From assembly GCA_036745875.1 (NCBI GenBank), contig DAIOFH010000035.1, positions 1 to 32,018 of the forward strand: a DNA stretch of 32,018 bases, given 5' to 3'. The notes beneath the pieces were generated by a model that made no database searches, was not told where the DNA came from, and saw only the letters and a list, made by a program, of their open reading frames with translations. Made by a program: the position numbers and the translations under genes. Source of the DNA: Planctomycetota bacterium. Lineage in GTDB: Bacteria > Planctomycetota > SZUA-567. Shown piece by piece: positions 4,086 through 27,396 of the stretch. Each line of letters begins with the position of its first letter. The stretch's first letter is position 1.

Positions 4086-4763
4086 CTAACAGCCGATTAT
4101 GGAAATAATCTTCCCGATCACTTCACCGGGAGTCATGGAACTGGTGTCAAGATAATGGATCCCCTTGCCGGACATAGCGTTATCGCGAGCCTCCTTCATC
4201 GGGCCCACTTGATAATCCGCTTCATCGCGCTTGACGATATCGTCATATATTGCCGAAAGTTCGACTTCCCGGCCCGCTTCCAGCATCTCCTTGTAGCGGC
4301 GCTCGGCCCTCGCCTCCGCCGAAGCGGTCAGAAAAAACTTCCAGCGCGCCTTCGGCAGCACTACGGTGCAAATATCCCGCCCTTCCATGACGACAGGCCG
4401 TTTTTCCGCAAACCCTTGCTGCAGCCTGACCATATGTGATCGGATCGCCGGCACCCTGGCGGCGAATTTCACATTCTGCGCCACCTCCGGGGAACGTATA
4501 TCCGAGGAGACGTCGGCACCGTCAAGCATGATCCGCGTGCCGCTGGGATCAAACTCAAGCCGTGACGAAAGCGCAACGCCGGCCATGACCTCGGGATCTT
4601 CCAGGTCGACGCCGAGCCGCAGCGCCTTCAGGGCGACGGCACGGTACATCGCCCCGGTATCGACGTAGAGGAACCCCTTCGCCTCGGCGACTTGTTTGGC
4701 AACGCTTGACTTGCCCGCGCCGGCGGGGCCGTCGATGGCCACCGCATCCTGTGAATTTTCCAT
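4086..4763 (-). CDS. cmk: Cytidylate kinase
   Basis: AIDGPAGAGKSSVAK P-loop and the YVDTGAMYR motif typical of Cmk. Start at MENSQ (ATG 4761-4763), 4 nt after the rpiB stop; an alternative ATG at 4773-4775 overlaps rpiB. Confidence 0.85.
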   Translation of the reverse strand: MENSQDAVAIDGPAGAGKSSVAKQVAEAKGFLYVDTGAMYRAVALKALRLGVDLEDPEVMAGVALSSRLEFDPSGTRIMLDGADVSSDIRSPEVAQNVKFAARVPAIRSHMVRLQQGFAEKRPVVMEGRDICTVVLPKARWKFFLTASAEARAERRYKEMLEAGREVELSAIYDDIVKRDEADYQVGPMKEARDNAMSGKGIHYLDTSSMTPGEVIGKIISIIGC

Positions 4764-4767
4764 CCCG

Positions 4768-5220
4768 TTACCCATTCGGATGATCGATGCGGTAGATGCG
4801 GCGAATATGGCGTTCCGCGTTGGAGAACGGGGTATTGAGCCAGGCATCGAGGATGTCGACCTGCGGGTCGACGGACGGCGCGCGGCCGGGCATTACCAAA
4901 ATATTCGAATCATTGTGTTCGCGGGCAAGCTTGGCGAATTCCACAGTCACGCACAAGGCGGCGCGGATGCCGGGAACGCGGTTGGCCACATAGCTCATGC
5001 CAAGGCCGGTGCCGCACAACAACACCGCCTTCGGAAAATCGCCTCGGGCCACGGCTTCCGCGACCGGACGCGCGACCTCGGGATAGTCCCCGGCCCCGTC
5101 CTGGACGGCAGTGTAGTCCGTCACCTCCCACCCCAGATCCTGAAGGTGTTTTTTAAGCTGCTCCTTCACATCGAAGGCAGCATGGTCAGAACCAATGGCA
5201 ATTTTTTTCACTTCGCTCAT
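4768..5220 (-). CDS. rpiB: Ribose-5-phosphate isomerase B
   Basis: 150 aa, MSEVKKIAIGSDHAAFDVKEQL...CGTGLGMSYVANRVPGIRAA, a typical RpiB/LacAB fold. Confidence 0.85.
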   Translation of the reverse strand: MSEVKKIAIGSDHAAFDVKEQLKKHLQDLGWEVTDYTAVQDGAGDYPEVARPVAEAVARGDFPKAVLLCGTGLGMSYVANRVPGIRAALCVTVEFAKLAREHNDSNILVMPGRAPSVDPQVDILDAWLNTPFSNAERHIRRIYRIDHPNG

Positions 5221-5271: not shown

Positions 5272-5901
5272 TTAAGTATCGAAGTCCCAAATGGTCGCGA
5301 GGTCGCGTCGCGTGATCGCTCCCTCCCGCAGAATGTCGAATCCCCCATCCTTGTCTGCCAGAACGACAGTGGAGGCTGTGCCAACCGCGCATACGCCACC
5401 GTCAACGAGCAGATCCACAGCGGATCCAAATACATCCGCGGCACCGGCGTCGACAGGCGGCGGCTGCCCGCCCGGATTGGCGCTGGAAGTGGCGACCGCC
5501 CGCCCGAATTTCTTTATGACCGCCAGGGCAAAGCCATGGTCGGGAATTCTCAACCCGAGGGTCCCGCCCTCTTTATCCGGCACGATCAGGGTCAGCGGTC
5601 CAGGCCAGTATTGGTCGGCGAGGTGCGTGGCCCCCCGGGAAAACTGCCCCCCCATGGCCAAACCCATCCGGACATCGGCGATCAAAAGCTGGAACGGCTT
5701 GTCCGCGTCCCGCCCCTTCAGGCTTCGTAGACGCGCCACCGCCTCGCGGTTCGCCGCATCGACGCCAATGCCGTAAACCGTTTCCGTCGGAAAAATGACG
5801 ATTCCGCCGGATGCAAGCGTTTCCACGGCCGCAGTAACGGCATCGGCGAAATCCGCAGCCAACAGCTTCCGTATGTGCGCCATGGTGCCAAGACCTATCA
5901 T
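5272..5901 (-). CDS. tsaC: L-threonylcarbamoyladenylate synthase (Sua5/YrdC/TsaC family)
   Basis: ETVYGIGVDAAN motif and YrdC-fold length. The start ATG at 5899-5901 overlaps the upstream PPIase stop (ATGA at 5898-5901). Confidence 0.8.
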   Translation of the reverse strand: MIGLGTMAHIRKLLAADFADAVTAAVETLASGGIVIFPTETVYGIGVDAANREAVARLRSLKGRDADKPFQLLIADVRMGLAMGGQFSRGATHLADQYWPGPLTLIVPDKEGGTLGLRIPDHGFALAVIKKFGRAVATSSANPGGQPPPVDAGAADVFGSAVDLLVDGGVCAVGTASTVVLADKDGGFDILREGAITRRDLATIWDFDT

Positions 5902-21599: not shown

Positions 21600-21623
21600 A
21601 GGATTAATGGCATATTAATCCTC
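21599..21623. other. Perfect 10-bp AT-rich inverted repeat GAGGATTAAT-ggcat-ATTAATCCTC at the MATE/rtcB convergent junction
   Basis: Read directly from the sequence. The rtcB stop codon lies inside the stem, and gaggatta is tandemly repeated immediately upstream (21591-21606). Confidence 0.4.
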
Positions 21624-22814
21624 CGGCCGTTCCCCTCCCTCAGCCATACGAACCAGTTTGGGCTCGAACTTCGCAACGATTTCCACCAGGTCTTCCTGTT
21701 CGCGCATGACTTCGTCGATATCCTTGTAGGCCATCGGACATTCGTCCAGACCGGCGGAAAGGAGGGTAATGCCGCGTTCGGCGAGGAAGTCCAGCATCTG
21801 CCGCTTGGTGAAGGTGTTTTTCGCCGCGTTGCGGCTCATGCGCCGACCCGCCCCGTGGGAGGCGGACAACAGGGACTTTTCGTTTCCCTTGCCCCTGACC
21901 ACGTAGCCCGGCGTCCCCATTGAACCGGGGATGATTCCAAGCGTACCCAGGGCGGCGGGCGTCGCGCCTTTTCTATGGACAACCACTTCCCGCCCGCCAT
22001 GCGTTTCCTTCCAGGCGAAATTGTGGTGGTTTTCCACATCGGCCAAAACGTCGACGCCCAGGTTCCTGGCGATCTTCTTGTGGATCAGCTGGTGGTTGGC
22101 GGACGAATACTCGCCCATGAGTTCCATGGCCCGCCAGTATTCCCGCCCTTCCTGCGAGTCCAGGTCGAACCAGGCGAGGTACGACTGCTCCTTCGACAGT
22201 TCGGGATGGAGCTTTGCCGCCAGCTTCGAATAATGCTGCGCGATCGCGCCGCCAGTCCCCCGTGAACCGGAGTGCGACAGCAGGGAAAGATATTTTCCTT
22301 CCGCCAATTCGCCCGCATGGCGGCCGGCCTTCTCCGGCCGCGACCACAGTGCGGCAGGTTCGTCCAGGGTCAGGATGCCGAATTCGACAAAATGGTTCCC
22401 CGACCCCGAGGTGCCGAGTTGCGCCCATGCCTTGTCCTTGTTGGCCCGCGTGACCGGCGAGACGTCCCAGTCCATATCCATGACCGGGTGTTCGTTGCGC
22501 TTTTTCATTTTCGAGCCTACGCCAAAGACCGTTTCCCGCAGCAAGGCATTGCGCAGGCGTTCAGCCTGGCCGGTCAGGGCGGAGACGGGCAGGTCCAGGA
22601 CAGTCATTTTCATCCGGCAGGCGATATCCATGCCGACTGCATAGGGGATAACCGCGTCCTCGGTGGCCAATACGCCGCCGATGGGCAGGCCGTAGCCCTG
22701 ATGCGCATCAGGCATCAACGCCGCCGCCACGGAGACGGGGAGGGAACAGGCGTTGCGCATCTGCTTCAGGGCGCCTTCTTCGATATCCGTACCCCACTGG
22801 TTATAGTCGATCAT
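21615..22814 (-). CDS. rtcB: RNA-splicing ligase RtcB (3'-phosphate/5'-hydroxyl RNA ligase)
   Basis: 399 aa; MPDAHQGYGLPIGGV, HNFA, GSRG and other RtcB motifs. AAGGA SD. Starts 4 nt after the rtcA stop. Confidence 0.9.
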   Translation of the reverse strand: MIDYNQWGTDIEEGALKQMRNACSLPVSVAAALMPDAHQGYGLPIGGVLATEDAVIPYAVGMDIACRMKMTVLDLPVSALTGQAERLRNALLRETVFGVGSKMKKRNEHPVMDMDWDVSPVTRANKDKAWAQLGTSGSGNHFVEFGILTLDEPAALWSRPEKAGRHAGELAEGKYLSLLSHSGSRGTGGAIAQHYSKLAAKLHPELSKEQSYLAWFDLDSQEGREYWRAMELMGEYSSANHQLIHKKIARNLGVDVLADVENHHNFAWKETHGGREVVVHRKGATPAALGTLGIIPGSMGTPGYVVRGKGNEKSLLSASHGAGRRMSRNAAKNTFTKRQMLDFLAERGITLLSAGLDECPMAYKDIDEVMREQEDLVEIVAKFEPKLVRMAEGGERPED

Positions 22815-22818
22815 TGTC

Positions 22819-24837
22819 TCATCCTTTATCGCGGCAGGTCACGGTGTATACGGAGTAGTCGTCCGTCTGGTGGTCGAATTTGACCGGCAGGAACGACTCG
22901 ATGACCTGCATGTTGGTTTTACTGTGTTCCGTCAGGGGAAGGGTGGAAAACTCCCCGCCACCCGCCAGGGCGAGCGGCAACAATATCTGGTCGGCGGAAT
23001 GCTTGCCCAGGACGGCCGTCGACGCGGCATACAGCCTTGCGGCGCTTCCGGCGGCGTCAGCCACTTTTTCAGCCCTGAGCGCCTTTTCGCCAAAGGCGGT
23101 GAATACTTCGCTGTGGTCGCCTTTCTCGTCCCGCGCGTCCACCATGACGACATTGCCGGGACCGGCGGACTCGACCTGCAGGACGCGGCATTGGCTGTCC
23201 GACAGGCCGAGGCGACGGCGCAGGGCCTCCGCCTCCCGCTTGGCGACGGATTCCGGCAGCCCGCTGTAGACGCAACAGCCGCTCAATTTCACTTCTCCGC
23301 CGCGTTTCAGCAAAGACAACGGCGACAATTTCCCGCCCTGCACGCGGACTTTTACCTTGCCGCCCCCGGCGGGAAAAAAGCCGTGACGCGCAAGGGCAAC
23401 ATCCACTGCCGCCCCCATGCGCCGCAGCAGCGGCAAAAAGGTGCGTTCGAGGAAATCGTAGGGCGGAGCGAGCGGGTTGTGGGTGCCGCCTTCCAGGGTC
23501 AGGTTCGACTCCCCATCCGCAGACAGCAAGACAGGCAGGACGGTTTGCAAAACCAAAGTCGCGGACCCGGCCGTGCCGATGGCGAACGAATAGTTGCCGT
23601 GCCGGATACGTCCGGGTTTGAACTCGATTTCCGTCGAACCGGGGAAGTCGCCGTCGACCCGGGCGCCGCATATTTCCTCCGCCGCCTTGACAGCGGTCAT
23701 ATGCTGCCGCATAAGTCCCGGCTTGCGCCGCCTGGCTCGGATTTTATCGATGTGCAGCGCAGTTCCCGTGATCATCGACAGGGAAAGGGAGGTGCGCAAC
23801 ACCTGCCCTCCCCCTTCGCCAAGCGATCCATCTATATAAACCATCGGATACTCCTCCCGCCTGGTGATGGTCGCCGCCTCGGAAGCCTTCTTCGCTTCGA
23901 CCACTTTGTTCATGATCGCCTTGATGTCGCCGGGGAGTATTATGTCCCTGACGCCGAAGGAGGTGACCGAATACCCGTACTGCACGGCCTTGGCGCGAAG
24001 CTCCCGTTCCAGATCTCCGGCCAGGGAGTCCTTGTCCGAAAGCAGGCTGTCGAGTTCGACGCCGCCGACCTTTGCCCGCAGCAACAGTTGCGCTTCGCGG
24101 TACAGTGCCTGCTTCGCGTCCACCGATTCGTCCAGGCTTTTCATGACGTCGACGACCCTGCAGGTCAACGAAACGTTCAGCCTCAGCGCCAGCTTGTCGG
24201 CGGTCAACATGTCCTGCCCGCCGATGTCCAGGGTAATTTCCCGCATATCGACGACGCTGGACTGGTTGCCGTCGACAGCCTTCCAATAGACGTATTTCCC
24301 CGGTTCGAGCAAGCCGACGAATTCGCCGTTGTGGTAATACGACGCCTTGCTGCCGGGTCGGACCAGGACGACGAGAAAATGCGCAGCAAACGCCGGGTTC
24401 ATCATGATGCTGTCCAGGTCGGCGTGGACGAATCGGCCATGCTCGTCCCGGATGTCGTATACTTCATAGCGGATATCGACAAGCCCTTTCCACCAGGCCC
24501 AGCGTCCCGGCTCAAGGATACCGCAAAAGACGCCGTCCCGCCAGACCAGCGCCCGCTGATTGGAGTCAAGATCGAGGAGCGCCACTTCCTCTTCGGGCAA
24601 AAGACCGGACTTGACCATGGCGGGAAGCTGTTCGTGCCTGAACCACGGGTCGAGGCGGGAGAAGACCTCCATGGTATACTCCCCCATGGGGTCGAAAATC
24701 CATTTCTCGTCCTTTTCAAGCAGGCCCTGGAATTTGCCGTTTCTCCACAACAGGCCGCGCTGATAATCACGGACGCGAAATTTCCTGAGTCCGGCGAAAT
24801 AGGTGGCAACGTCGCCGATGAATTTGAGGGTGCCCAT
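22819..24837 (-). CDS. rtcA: SPFH/band-7 domain :: RNA 3'-terminal phosphate cyclase RtcA fusion protein (672 aa)
   Basis: The C-terminal 341 aa align along their length to RtcA (YIDGSLGEGGGQVLRTSLSLSMITG, RQHMTAVKAAEEICGA, LVLQTVLPVLL, DQILLPLALAGGGEF, LTEHSKTN). The N-terminal 331 aa form an SPFH domain (VVDMREITLDIGGQDMLTADKLALRLNVSLTCRVVD...GYSVTSFGVRDIILPGDIKAIMNK). A single ORF with no stop between them. ATG at 24835-24837 with AGGAGA SD; the ORF-track M1 is a TTG. Confidence 0.8.
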   Translation of the reverse strand: MGTLKFIGDVATYFAGLRKFRVRDYQRGLLWRNGKFQGLLEKDEKWIFDPMGEYTMEVFSRLDPWFRHEQLPAMVKSGLLPEEEVALLDLDSNQRALVWRDGVFCGILEPGRWAWWKGLVDIRYEVYDIRDEHGRFVHADLDSIMMNPAFAAHFLVVLVRPGSKASYYHNGEFVGLLEPGKYVYWKAVDGNQSSVVDMREITLDIGGQDMLTADKLALRLNVSLTCRVVDVMKSLDESVDAKQALYREAQLLLRAKVGGVELDSLLSDKDSLAGDLERELRAKAVQYGYSVTSFGVRDIILPGDIKAIMNKVVEAKKASEAATITRREEYPMVYIDGSLGEGGGQVLRTSLSLSMITGTALHIDKIRARRRKPGLMRQHMTAVKAAEEICGARVDGDFPGSTEIEFKPGRIRHGNYSFAIGTAGSATLVLQTVLPVLLSADGESNLTLEGGTHNPLAPPYDFLERTFLPLLRRMGAAVDVALARHGFFPAGGGKVKVRVQGGKLSPLSLLKRGGEVKLSGCCVYSGLPESVAKREAEALRRRLGLSDSQCRVLQVESAGPGNVVMVDARDEKGDHSEVFTAFGEKALRAEKVADAAGSAARLYAASTAVLGKHSADQILLPLALAGGGEFSTLPLTEHSKTNMQVIESFLPVKFDHQTDDYSVYTVTCRDKG

Positions 24838-25163
24838 TGTTTTCTCCTTCTCTATCTTTTCTTCGTATGGTTGTTCTGTAAAAATTGGCTTCGCAAAGAC
24901 CGGACTACGCACGTCCAAGCATTACTCAACGGGGAAGCGGCGGAGAAAAGCGGAGCGGACTGGATTTCGCCGGCATCGGGAATACGCTTCAGCCCGACGA
25001 CGCCCTGCCTTTCCTTTCCCCGTTTGCCCGTACCGTTTCCGCAGGCCGGTTTTACTTTTCCTCGGGACGGGATGCGGATTTCGCCGAATTCCCGTCTTTA
25101 GAGGACAGACGCTCGTTTTCCTTTCTTCCCGAAGCCAAAACTGGTGGAAAGAGGCAACCCTTT

Positions 25164-25236
25164 CCCAAGGAGTGGGAGTTGAACCCACGACCCGCTGATC
25201 CATAGTCAGCTGCTCTACCCACTGAGCTATCCGAGA
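25164..25236 (-). ncRNA. tRNA-like element 1: canonical D, anticodon-like and T arms; weakened acceptor stem; loop CUAUGGA; no CCA
   Basis: Minus-strand read UCUCGGA-UA-GCUC-AGUGGGUA-GAGC-A-GCUGA-CUAUGGA-UCAGC-GGGUC-GUGGG-UUCAACU-CCCAC-UCCUUGG-G. The acceptor pairs only 5 of 7 positions (internal UU/CU mismatch). The would-be anticodon AUG is not a natural bacterial anticodon. Confidence 0.5.
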
Positions 25237-25308
25237 TGGTGGACAATACGGGAGTCGAACCCGCCGGGAGTCGTCTCGGACCCGCCGCCATACCGTCATG
25301 GATTGCCC
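25237..25308 (-). ncRNA. tRNA-like element 2: perfect acceptor stem, T arm and encoded CCA, but a non-canonical core
   Basis: Minus-strand read GGGCAAU-CCAU-GACGGU-AUGG-CGGC-GGGUC-CGAGAC-GACUC-CCG-GCGGG-UUCGACU-CCCGU-AUUGUCC-A-CCA. The D-like stem starts at position 8 and the would-be anticodon loop is 6 nt. Abuts element 1 head to tail. Confidence 0.5.
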
Positions 25309-25414
25309 CGCTCGGCCCGATTCTTTTCAGAACCCGTTCCCCGGTACAGGCCCGACCGATCTTTTGGGAGAGGCGGGAATGCCGGCGGAAGAATCGAACA
25401 CGCTTTTGGTAAAA

Positions 25415-25429
25415 ACAACAGGCTTGCCA
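25415..25429 (-). promoter_or_regulatory. Candidate sigma-54 (-24/-12) promoter for the tRNA-like elements and rtcAB
   Basis: The minus strand reads TGGCAAgcctgTTGTT, which has the exact TGGCAC-N5-TTGC spacing, GG conserved, and GC replaced by GT. It lies about 105 nt upstream of tRNA-like element 2 and is oriented toward rtcA/rtcB. RtcR has a GAFTGA motif, implying a sigma-54 target nearby. Confidence 0.3.
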
Positions 25430-25546
25430 AAAATAAACAGGGCACAGCCAAAATCGGCAGAATCATGCAACATATTCATTATGAGGCAGTTAAAAAAGAA
25501 TTTATTAATTTGCGATGAAATTGCTTTTTCTTTGGCGGGGAGGCAG

Positions 25547-25575
25547 TTGAAAACATGTGAAGACGATATTATAAT
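25547..25575 (+). promoter_or_regulatory. Sigma-70 promoter of rtcR (TTGAAA-N17-TATAAT)
   Basis: TTGAAA at 25547-25552, a 17-nt spacer, TATAAT at 25570-25575; the rtcR ATG is at 25616 with GAGGCAGGA SD. Confidence 0.5.
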
Positions 25576-25615
25576 TAATTCTACATTTTATAATTTTTTA
25601 TAATGAGGCAGGATC

Positions 25616-27214
25616 ATGGCAAAACTGAAAAAGCACCGGCCGCTTGTCGTCATCGGCATGTTCGGAACAAACCTCGACGCTTCGCCGCAGGGTCGCAGCG
25701 AACGCTGGGAGCGCTGGCGGCCAAGCCTGTCCATTTGCCAGCACGATGATCTCATAGTCGACCGCTTCGAGTTGTTGCACGGCCGCGGCCATGACAAAAG
25801 CGCCGCCCTCCTCGCGGGCGACATGGAAACGGTCTCGCCGGAGACGAAAGTCAACCTGCACGAAATAGCCATGCACGATCCCTGGGATTTCGAGGAAGTC
25901 TATTCCGCGTTGTACGACTTTGCCCACGGCTATGCCTGGAGGCACGAGACTGAGGATTATCTTGTCCACATCACCACCGGCACGCATGTGGCGCAGATCT
26001 GCCTTTTCCTCCTGGCCGAATCGAGGCATTTTCCGGCGAAGCTTCTGCAAACCAGCCCGCCGAAACGGCGGCGAAGTCAAAACGCCGGTTCCTTCGCCGT
26101 CATCGACCTTGACCTGTCCAAATACGACCGCCTCGCCAGCCGCTTCGACAAAACGACTGAAAACGACCTCGCGTTCCTCAAGTCCGGGATCGACACCAGG
26201 AACAAGCGCTTCAACCGGCTTATCGAGGAAATAGAGAAAGTTGCGGTGCGTTCGCCCGAGCCGCTCCTGCTGATCGGGCCGACGGGCGCGGGCAAATCCC
26301 AACTTGGCAAAAAAATATACGAGCTCAAGAAAAACCGGCGGCTCGTCAGCGGGCCGTTTGTGGAAGTCAATTGCGCCACCCTCCGGGGCGACCAGGCGAT
26401 GGCCGCCCTGTTCGGCCATGCCAAGGGCGCATTCACCGGCGCGATCGAAAGCCGGGACGGCCTACTCAGGAAAGCGGACAAGGGCATGTTGTTCCTGGAC
26501 GAGATCGGCGAACTCGGCCTTGACGAACAGGCGATGCTGCTCCGGGCAGTGGAGGAAAAACGGTTTTTGCCGCTCGGGTCCGACAGCGAGGTGTTTTCCG
26601 ATTTCCAGCTCATCGCGGGAACCAACCGCGACCTGGCGCAGGAGGCCGAGGCGGGAATGTTTCGCAGCGACCTTCTCGCCCGCATCGATGTATGGACCTT
26701 CCGCCTGCCGGGATTGGCCGAGCGGCGGGAGGACATCGCGCCAAACCTTGACTACGAACTGGAGCGCGCGTCGGGGCAACTCGGGCGCAGGATCACCATG
26801 AACGCGGAGGCGAGAAAGGCATTTCTGGAGTTCGCCGATTCGGACCGGGCGACCTGGGCGGCCAATTTCCGCGACTTGGCGGCGGCGGTGACGCGGATGG
26901 CCACCCTCGCCGACGGCGGAAGGATCGCCCTTGCCGAATGCCGGACGGAGATAGGCCGCCTGGAACAGCAGTGGCGGTCGGGCAAGAGCGAAAGCGTTCC
27001 CGCCTTCCCCCATCTGGACCTTTTCGACGCGGTGCAGCTGGAAAAAGTGCTGGAGATATGCAGGCGTTGCGAAAGCTTGTCCGGTGCCGGCCGCGTGCTT
27101 TTCCAGACGTCGCGGCAAAAACGCAAACAAGCCAACGACGCCGACCGCCTGCGGAAATACCTGGCCAAATTCGGCCTTTCCTGGAAAGACATAATTAAAA
27201 CTGAAAATCAATAA
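25616..27214 (+). CDS. rtcR: Sigma-54 dependent transcriptional regulator RtcR (CARF domain, AAA+ domain, HTH)
   Basis: 532 aa. It is collinear with E. coli RtcR as recalled from memory: N-terminal CARF region with RWxRWRP, Walker A GPTGAGKS, GAFTGA in HAKGAFTGA, and C-terminal DADRLRKYLAKFGLSW. Confidence 0.9.
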   Translation: MAKLKKHRPLVVIGMFGTNLDASPQGRSERWERWRPSLSICQHDDLIVDRFELLHGRGHDKSAALLAGDMETVSPETKVNLHEIAMHDPWDFEEVYSALYDFAHGYAWRHETEDYLVHITTGTHVAQICLFLLAESRHFPAKLLQTSPPKRRRSQNAGSFAVIDLDLSKYDRLASRFDKTTENDLAFLKSGIDTRNKRFNRLIEEIEKVAVRSPEPLLLIGPTGAGKSQLGKKIYELKKNRRLVSGPFVEVNCATLRGDQAMAALFGHAKGAFTGAIESRDGLLRKADKGMLFLDEIGELGLDEQAMLLRAVEEKRFLPLGSDSEVFSDFQLIAGTNRDLAQEAEAGMFRSDLLARIDVWTFRLPGLAERREDIAPNLDYELERASGQLGRRITMNAEARKAFLEFADSDRATWAANFRDLAAAVTRMATLADGGRIALAECRTEIGRLEQQWRSGKSESVPAFPHLDLFDAVQLEKVLEICRRCESLSGAGRVLFQTSRQKRKQANDADRLRKYLAKFGLSWKDIIKTENQ

Positions 27215-27320: not shown

Positions 27321-27396
27321 GCGGGCGTAGCTCAGTGGCTAGAGCACCACCTTGCCAAGGTGGGGGTCGAGGGTTCGAATCTCTTCGCCCGCTCCA
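27321..27396 (+). tRNA. tRNA-Gly (anticodon GCC)
   Basis: GCGGGCG-TA-GCTC-AGTGGCTA-GAGC-A-CCACC-TTGCCAA-GGTGG-GGGTC-GAGGG-TTCGAAT-CTCTT-CGCCCGC-T-CCA; a canonical cloverleaf with CCA encoded. Confidence 0.9.

Follow-up and report, generated by a model that had tools for sequence, protein, structure and literature searches.

The window analysed here, by which we mean the whole 32,018-nucleotide (nt) stretch of contig DAIOFH010000035.1 from a Planctomycetota bacterium, carries two abutting tRNA-like elements in the 5′ leader of an RNA-repair (Rtc) operon. Both lie on the minus strand. The element nearer to the operon, E1 (25164..25236, −), is a full cloverleaf, and its partner, E2 (25237..25308, −), is a degenerate one. 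An earlier note on this DNA had delimited the two elements and described their features as we find them by direct reading, ARAGORN and the Rfam tRNA model. Elements of this kind exist and are conserved, their cloverleaf is supported by covariation, and they are tied almost exclusively to Rtc operons whose first gene encodes a Band-7/SPFH protein. E1 and its degenerate partner E2 are probably Band-7(SPFH)-associated tRNA-like RNA elements in the leader of an RtcR/sigma-54 operon, where they would provide the RNA part of the repair machinery.

E1 belongs to a covarying family of non-decoding tRNA-like elements

Read from 25236 to 25164, E1 is called as tRNA-His(atg) by ARAGORN and matches the Rfam tRNA model with 53.2 bits (E=6.7e-9 for the whole window). 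Its arms, including a T arm of its own, follow the order of a standard cloverleaf. In the Rfam match the acceptor pairs 3:70 and 4:69 are non-standard, which leaves five of seven pairs, the anticodon loop is CUAUGGA with the unnatural anticodon AUG, and the 3′ CCA is absent. With the family covariance model R1, E1 scores 74.4 bits and other SPFH-proximal elements 68 to 82 bits, but the same model gives 68.6 bits to a true tRNA-Gly of the window that has the invariant D arm of the family, so it cannot separate the mimics from some true tRNAs. That gene, a normal-looking tRNA-Gly(GCC) with an encoded CCA, is found at 27321-27396 (+), 107 nt past the rtcR stop, and has an Rfam tRNA score of 66.8 bits. 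The fold of E1 is no more stable than that of shuffled sequences (z = +0.41). E1 is clearly more than a chance match.

Covariation was measured on an alignment of 56 SPFH-proximal elements. Standard pairs occupied 92% of the cells, versus 70% in shuffles, and the covariation score was 0.587 versus 0.162, a value reached in none of 500 shuffles (slid controls gave at most 0.108). Changes on both sides of a helix were seen in the anticodon stem, the T stem and the four inner acceptor pairs, and the D stem GCUC/GAGC was invariant across the 56 elements. In 35–60% of members the three outer acceptor pairs were unpaired, so the "mismatched acceptor" of E1 is characteristic of the family. The part under least constraint was the anticodon loop: U33 was present in 28 of 50 members, the loop deviated from 7 nt in 9 of 56, and triplets starting with A34 were common (AUG, AAG, AUU, AAU, AGG, AGU). 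In 46 of the 56 homologues a hairpin of at least 4 bp begins no more than 8 nt from the 3′ end of the tRNA-like element. In the window, folding places this hairpin directly 3′ of E1, as GGAAAGGG-UUGC-CUCUUUCC followed by ACCA (25142..25165, −).

The elements of this family are non-decoding tRNA mimics. Neither element of the window has the make-up of a canonical decoding tRNA, as the earlier note had argued: E1 has the AUG anticodon, lacks pairs 3:70 and 4:69 and has no CCA, and E2 has a 6-nt loop, a mismatched anticodon stem and no Rfam tRNA call. ARAGORN did not turn them into ordinary tRNAs with standard anticodons, since E1 received the unnatural AUG and E2 was called at relaxed thresholds only. 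The compensatory changes that the note had proposed to look for in relatives were found, as covariation in the E1 family and as helix-preserving changes in the nearest homologue of E2.

The elements accompany SPFH-first Rtc operons

Loci were collected by two protein-anchored scans. The RtcR-anchored scan gave 80 loci from many phyla, in which the divergent operon begins with rsr, rtcB or an SPFH gene; the SPFH-anchored scan gave 80 metagenome loci, 55 of which have at least 900 nt of upstream sequence. Of the 16 SPFH-first RtcR loci, 12 had strong tRNA-sized matches to the family model in the leader, versus 2 of 59 others (Fisher P=5.6e-9). In the latter two loci, L021 and L049, the element is 5′ of rsr. 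For the SPFH-anchored set, a T arm was detected 250–900 nt upstream on the operon strand in 55 of 55 loci, and on the opposite strand in only one of 55. The proposal that the elements are tRNA mimics of an RtcR-controlled RNA-repair locus is borne out.

In Rsr-type loci the Rfam YrlA model matched between rsr and rtcB with 75–86 bits (controls L030, L003 and L080). It found no YrlA in the six SPFH-type loci scanned, the leaders of which match "tRNA" only. From the counts and these scans together, it follows that the tRNA-like element accompanies Band-7 as YrlA accompanies Rsr. In the window, a tblastn search over the 32 kb returned no match to Rsr, with a query ORF (open reading frame) from L049 that was assigned by sequence, without Pfam confirmation. 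The absence of Rsr had been remarked before, and the analogy then drawn with Rsr/YrlA is apt. The description as an "Rsr-less variant" is correct as far as Rsr is concerned, but the concept is not new, and the Band-7/SPFH partner that defines the arrangement had been missed.

Some loci of these scans depart from the layout of the window. The tRNA-like genes between rtcR and rsr are at 4759-5081 (−) in L021 and at 5680-5757 (−) in L049. Arrays of 5–13 tRNA or tRNA-like genes lie upstream of SPFH, on the same strand, in L082-L085, L090, L091, L108, L127, L141 and L158; the order Trp, Thr, Arg, Arg, Arg, Cys, ... recurs in several of these arrays, with a conserved odd "tRNA-Cys(GCA)"-like member. 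In L013, L016 and L023, where the SPFH match is shorter, the leader has a degenerate T-arm element and no full cloverleaf.

E2 is a degenerate element retained in relatives

By direct reading, E2 has a 7-bp acceptor stem (GGGCAAU/AUUGUCC, with G1:C72, G2:C71 and G3:U70), a T arm GCGGG-UUCGACU-CCCGU whose closing pair is G-U, and a 3′ end made of A73 and an encoded CCA, this ACCA abutting the first base of E1. Its D and anticodon arms are poor, and the minimum-free-energy structure has the four arms of a cloverleaf and an "anticodon" loop of 6 nt. ARAGORN at relaxed thresholds calls it as a 72-nt tRNA-Arg(ccg) with exactly the coordinates 25308 to 25237 and a mismatched anticodon stem; the Rfam tRNA model makes no call, and family model R1 matches the T arm alone (14.9 bits, E=0.0035). 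The fold of E2 is not distinct from shuffles (z-score −0.52), and a 7/7 complementary acceptor arose in 14% of shuffles (P ~0.14, a weak test on a single sequence). A Fisher combination for the E2-type acceptor across nine loci gave ~0.007. Judged by the sequence of the window alone, E2 would be unconvincing as more than chance; its conservation argues for it.

The closest relative found, locus L161, has an SPFH protein 88% identical to that of the window. From the promoter to the hairpin the two leaders are ~89% identical (hand count from the alignment), versus 73% at third codon positions. L161 retains E2, with changes that preserve its helices: the G-U pair of the T stem becomes A-U, and two changes in the middle arm render its 5-bp stem continuous. 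The encoded ACCA, which the earlier note had reported and which is present in the window, is ACUU in L161, where pair 1:72 is broken as well. At the E1 positions where the window has the broken pair C4/U69, L161 has U4-A69, and its loop is CUAAUAA instead of CUAUGGA; the hairpin and ACCAG 3′ of E1 are kept.

E2-type elements, with an acceptor-like helix, a T arm and poor other arms, were found upstream of the main element in L001, L162/L163, L165, L166, L167, L170/L171, L040, L052, L118 and L126. The Pseudomonas group, L124 and L134 have a full cloverleaf as the upstream copy, and L168, a member of the window's clade, is without E2. MAFFT gave no usable alignment of the E2 5′ halves over the clade. 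The combination G2:C71, G3:U70, A73 and CCA is common to the window, L166 and L167 only, and the lower stems of these three differ by compensation (AAU/AUU, AAG/CUU and AUG/CAU). G3:U70 is also present in L161 and L040, and the ACCA at the junction in L126. Together with G1:C72, these positions form the identity set of alanyl-tRNA synthetase (AlaRS), all of which E2 of the window possesses. The pattern is suggestive of alanine identity, in few and partly related loci. Apart from this, a T-arm minihelix (acceptor-like stem, GAAA-type hairpin, T arm) was observed 3′ of the main element in L022 (~5520-5560, −), L065, L144, L128 and L159/L160; the clade of the window has the reverse order.

Conservation extends to the whole leader

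The operon leader is ~570 nt long. A candidate sigma-54 (−24/−12) promoter of the operon, TGGCAAGCCTGTTGTT (25414..25429, −), matches the pattern with two mismatches. As a pattern match it is not significant (15 matches in all, versus 14.2 expected), but it is unchanged in L161, and a canonical TGGCAC-N5-TTGC occupies the equivalent position in other SPFH-type leaders. The candidate promoter of the earlier note is therefore favoured by its position and its identity in L161, and weakened by its two mismatches and lack of significance. E1 and E2 are co-oriented with the operon and 3′ of this site, as had been noted.

Two further motifs were recognised. M1, CCUGUACCGGGGAACGGGUUCUGAAAAG in the window (25323..25350, −), was defined by its recurrence across leaders (family consensus ~GUGUUCCGUGAACGGGUUCUGACGAAGG). 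In various phyla, most SPFH-type leaders have it 20–40 nt 5′ of the tRNA-like element(s), and L161 has an identical copy. M2, with the consensus GGCAGCAC-N10-12-GCCCUGCAGUGCGUGGAUACCGC, is found in many leaders, 110–515 nt before the SPFH start. Its tentative counterpart in the window, GGCAGGGCGUCGUCGGGCUGAAGCGUAUUCCCGAUGCCGG (24970..25009, −), diverges from the consensus and was placed by visual comparison with L127, so it is a putative copy. M1 (GUGUUCCGUGAACGGGUUCUGACGAAGG) and M2 (GGCAGCAC...CUGCAGUGCGUGGAUACCGC) were seen to flank the tRNA-like elements across phyla, for instance in L082-L137. Rfam has no family that covers M1 or M2.

RNAalifold, applied to ten leaders, recovered the cloverleaf, the 3′ hairpin and a GCCCG/CGGGC hairpin. 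It also found a helix GCCNC/GNGGC with compensatory changes, one pair being changed on both sides in five sequences, and it paired M1 (UGGxxUCUG) with M2 (UGGAUACCG) across ~300 nt. The bases of this last pairing are nearly invariant, so that it is without covariation support. A hand pairing of the 5′ flank of M1 with GGCAGCAC showed compensating changes in several loci, but the helix was absent from the RNAalifold result. The tRNA-like module may lie within a larger structured RNA, ~350 nt long.

In four genomes of the Pseudomonas group (L050, L058, L061 and L071), the leader outside three loops was 92–97% identical, versus 89–91% at third codon positions. The three loops, namely the two anticodon regions and the 3′ hairpin loop, were only 14–88% identical, and the anticodon loops 14–86%. 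The anticodon loops of this group thus change far faster than near-neutral synonymous sites. Little fast change of this kind was seen in other close sets (L002/L005/L006, L082/L088, L155/L160); the pattern is therefore a lead and not a rule.

Gene order in the window

The regulator gene rtcR (25616..27214, +) encodes a sigma-54 activator with a CARF-type RtcR domain (Pfam RtcR 3.3e-79, Sigma54_activat 9.8e-46), and is divergent from the SPFH-RtcA/rtcB operon; all parts of the present finding, E1 and E2 included, are on the minus strand. From the rtcR side the order is the sigma-54-like site, M1, E2, E1, the hairpin with ACCA, ~300 nt more of leader, the SPFH-RtcA ORF and rtcB. The ORF (22819..24837, −) encodes 672 amino acids, with a slipin-like Band-7/SPFH domain in the first 330 residues fused in frame to RtcA (Pfam Band_7 160-330, RTC 341-656). 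The RNA ligase gene rtcB follows at 21615..22814 (−; Pfam RtcB E=5.5e-90). The elements had been placed immediately upstream of rtcA. They do belong to the same operon and strand, but 326 nt separate E1 from an ORF of which Band-7/SPFH is the first domain and RtcA the second. Between E1 and this ORF, no terminator-like site or intrinsic terminator was found.

The SPFH part of the ORF passes directly from ...ITRREE into the start of RtcA (YP-MVYIDGS...). Its closest homologue, P0001, is a free-standing SPFH protein of 384 amino acids with 88% identity, and has a C-terminal tail of 55 amino acids that is absent from the window ORF. The single ORF could be a true deletion and fusion, or an assembly artefact. 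The database holds one other chimeric Band_7+RTC protein, P0010 (469 amino acids).

The AT-rich region between rtcR and the operon contains three copies of GAGGCAG(T/G)(T/A), at 25483-25491, 25540-25548 and 25605-25613 (+), spaced by 57 and 65 nt. Four matches occur in the window versus 0.84 expected, and a single copy is partly retained in L161. They could be binding sites of an activator or other regulator. A sigma-70-like promoter, TTGAAA-17-TATAAT (11 of 12 matches), is located at 25547-25575 (+), ~40 nt before the rtcR start.

Relation to known RNAs

A class of tRNA-like RNAs associated with Band-7 genes, the b7a-tRNAs, was reportedly predicted by Burroughs and Aravind in 2016 by comparative genomics. 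The summary of that prediction by Wang et al. 2018 (bioRxiv 10.1101/312249) describes a tRNA-like non-coding RNA beside a Band-7 gene and RtcB, proposes that it is functionally redundant with YrlA, mentions that it occasionally adjoins Rsr, and states that it is not validated. No later experimental study of b7a-tRNA was found in the full-text literature searched. E1 and E2 are members of this class, as it is given by the secondary summary. E1 adjoins a Band-7/SPFH gene in an RtcB operon and is a tRNA-like cloverleaf, and it agrees with the class in position, strand, fold, family-model score and in being an alternative to Rsr/YrlA; the occasional neighbourhood of rsr is matched by L021 and L049. 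E2 shares the cloverleaf in part, through its T arm and acceptor stem. Measured against the same secondary summary, the window differs by this second, degenerate element abutting E1, and by the fusion of Band-7 to RtcA.

In YrlA, a Ro-binding stem closes a tRNA of permuted order. YrlA resembles the elements of the window in its tRNA-like D and T arms, its occurrence in RtcR-controlled RtcB operons, its non-decoding nature and its proposed role as cofactor of a scaffold protein. The Rfam consensus, however, has the order T arm, closed stem-loop, D arm, whereas the window has cloverleaves of standard order; and YrlA lies between rsr and rtcB, whereas the window elements are in a 5′ leader, with Band-7 in place of Rsr and no Rsr match anywhere in the 32 kb. 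Membership in the YrlA/Y-RNA class, considered in the earlier note, is contradicted by the Rfam YrlA model (RF02553), which gave 18.9 bits at 25264 to 25212 against a gathering cut-off of 69. This weak match runs from the T arm of E2 into the D arm of E1, and the T-hairpin-D order arises only across their junction. Tandem tRNAs are a known false positive in model searches for YrlA (Chen et al. 2014), which explains the match.

Two other candidates were rejected. For transfer-messenger RNA (tmRNA), the Rfam score was 15.5 bits (cut-off 47), and ARAGORN -m reported 0 tmRNA genes. Like the tRNA-like domain of tmRNA, E2 has an acceptor with G3:U70, A73 and CCA, a T arm and reduced D and anticodon regions, but it is 72 nt long and lacks an mRNA-like reading frame and pseudoknots. 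E1 with its 3′ hairpin recalls the tymoviral tRNA-like structure (Tymo_tRNA-like, RF00233) in its D-like arm, anticodon-like arm, T arm, hairpin and ACCA; its score is 20.2 (cut-off 40). A tymovirus-type pseudoknotted acceptor could be paired in the window (GGGU/ACUC), but the loop bases are lost in L161.

Discussion

The general reading of the earlier note, that these are non-decoding mimics of the Rtc locus standing in for Rsr/YrlA, is right, and the class had already been predicted. Most likely, E1 and E2 are excised from the leader and serve the Band-7 scaffold as its RNA partner during repair by RtcB/RtcA. RtcR is activated by 5′ tRNA halves that end in a cyclic phosphate (PMC7790460), in line with the statement in the note that RtcR senses tRNA fragments. 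Upon such activation the leader would be transcribed with the operon, and its tRNA-shaped modules would fold into L-shaped mimics. Enzymes of tRNA processing would probably excise them; were RNase P to cleave at the 5′ boundary of E1, the 3′ end of E2 would be ...ACCA. The mimics, the Band-7 scaffold and RtcB/RtcA may then form a repair particle with the mimics as its RNA part, so that mimics and Band-7 would occupy the place that YrlA and Rsr hold in Rsr-type operons. A precedent for processing is the YrlA of M. smegmatis, described as cleavable by RNase P and able to acquire a CCA (PMC4201824). Transcription, processing, Band-7 binding and a role in repair are here inferred. As anticodon loops vary freely, the mimics may be recognised by their elbow and body, or the loop may face fast-changing partners such as anticodon nucleases.

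Several points weigh against excised mimics with this role. The 2018 summary (10.1101/312249) gives b7a-tRNA as not validated. The weak acceptor stem of E1 may make it a poor substrate of RNase P, and E2 may be dispensable, given its absence in L168 and its different form elsewhere. Small excised mimics account for the conservation of the whole leader no better than would a cis-acting leader or a single large RNA.

It is possible, though we consider it unlikely, that the leader acts in cis as one long structured RNA (~350–570 nt) controlling stability, processing or translation of the mRNA, with the tRNA-like modules as handles for enzymes that bind or cut tRNA. Conservation past the tRNA-like parts, with slower change than at synonymous sites, is as expected for such a leader, and so are the recurrence of M1 and M2 across phyla, their pairing by RNAalifold, the compensated GCCNC/GNGGC helix, the lack of a terminator before the ORF and the constant location of the elements on the operon strand, 5′ of the first gene. 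The near-invariance of the paired M1 and M2 bases and the poor M2 counterpart of the window speak against it, and the elements 5′ of rsr in L021 and L049 and the arrays of 5–13 look like separate RNAs. We are more doubtful that the mimics are baits or decoys for anticodon nucleases, either soaking up the nuclease or, once cut, feeding 5′ halves back on the CARF domain of RtcR to amplify induction. The turnover of anticodon loops within the conserved leaders of the four Pseudomonas-group genomes would fit a bait, as would the change from CUAUGGA to CUAAUAA inside an otherwise ~89% identical part of the window and L161 leaders. Loop triplets of the family are often those of known nuclease targets (UUU, GUG, GUU, ACG and CAU). 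RtcR binds 5′ tRNA halves with cyclic phosphate, and a role as competitive inhibitor has been suggested for YrlA (PMC7790460). Fast change is nevertheless clear in one group of four genomes only, and in loops of 7 nt; it was slight in the three other close sets, and relaxed constraint or single events that alter several bases could account for it. The Salmonella nuclease did not cleave YrlA, and the element cannot act as the initial sensor, because a sigma-54 promoter is hardly transcribed until it is induced.

It appears quite improbable that E2 is an aminoacylatable minihelix which, once RNase P has made its CCA end by cleaving at the start of E1, receives alanine as the tRNA-like domain of tmRNA does. 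Besides its AlaRS identity set, kept in L166 and L167 despite compensatory change of the lower stem and met in part in L161, L040 and L126, one may cite the encoded CCA of the true tRNA gene of the window and the weak tmRNA match to the acceptor and T arm. The set is not conserved, however: L161 has ACUU, the third pair is G3:C70 in L001, L165 and L118 (the latter by hand reading), U3:A70 in L170 and C3:G70 in the Pseudomonas group, most members are without an encoded CCA, and L168 has no E2 at all. Since the window, L166 and L167 form one clade, shared descent accounts for part of the pattern; the tmRNA score is far under its cut-off, ARAGORN finds no tmRNA, and a charged non-decoding RNA has no evident function in repair. 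The remaining two explanations we regard as very nearly discarded. One takes E2 and E1 together as a YrlA-type Y RNA, made of the E2 T arm, a junction hairpin and the E1 D arm, and it is largely refuted. The weak YrlA match does cover exactly that stretch, and the minimum-free-energy fold of E2+E1 does contain a junction hairpin (UGUCC/GGAUA) and a 10-bp closing stem, but this fold is no more stable than shuffles (z=+0.57), true YrlAs of Rsr loci score 75–86 bits, well above the cut-off, E1 forms a complete cloverleaf that includes a T arm, Rsr was not found in the window, and tandem tRNAs are a recognised source of false matches. The other, that the elements are ordinary decoding tRNAs, decayed pseudogenes or functionless chance matches, is refuted by the comparative data: ARAGORN and Rfam do call E1 a tRNA and E2 alone is indistinct from shuffles, but E1 has an unnatural anticodon, two broken acceptor pairs and no CCA, U33 is often lost in the family, and position, strand and structure are kept across phyla with covariation, the sequence being conserved above synonymous sites.

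A more speculative combination, to which we attach little likelihood, is that the mimics are baits in an arms race. Their loops would diversify against nucleases, and cutting or binding of these leader-embedded baits would couple the attack to RtcR signalling and to repair by Band-7/RtcB. In the clade of the window, E2 would also be a CCA-ended minihelix freed by RNase P, possibly accepting alanine.

Beyond the descriptions of the class that we found, the present comparison adds the recurring E2-type minihelices, the G3:U70, A73 and CCA shared by three loci of one clade, the Pseudomonas-group anticodon loops that outpace synonymous sites, and a whole leader conserved with two further motifs. 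An SPFH gene of P. aeruginosa, PaFlo8, lies in an rtc locus according to a 2026 paper (PMC13086221), and a term search of the text of that paper gave no occurrence of the word "tRNA". With the SPFH-rtc layout reported there, the predictions made here are testable in a tractable organism. Of the accessory RNA-protein pairs of bacterial Rtc operons, Rsr with Y RNA and Band-7 with a tRNA-like RNA, the Band-7 branch has so far only been predicted in the literature searched. The comparative set offers experimental handles on it: a covariance-supported family of at least 56 members with a weakened acceptor and an invariant D stem, a conserved 3′ hairpin, two leader motifs and rapid loop change in one Pseudomonas group.

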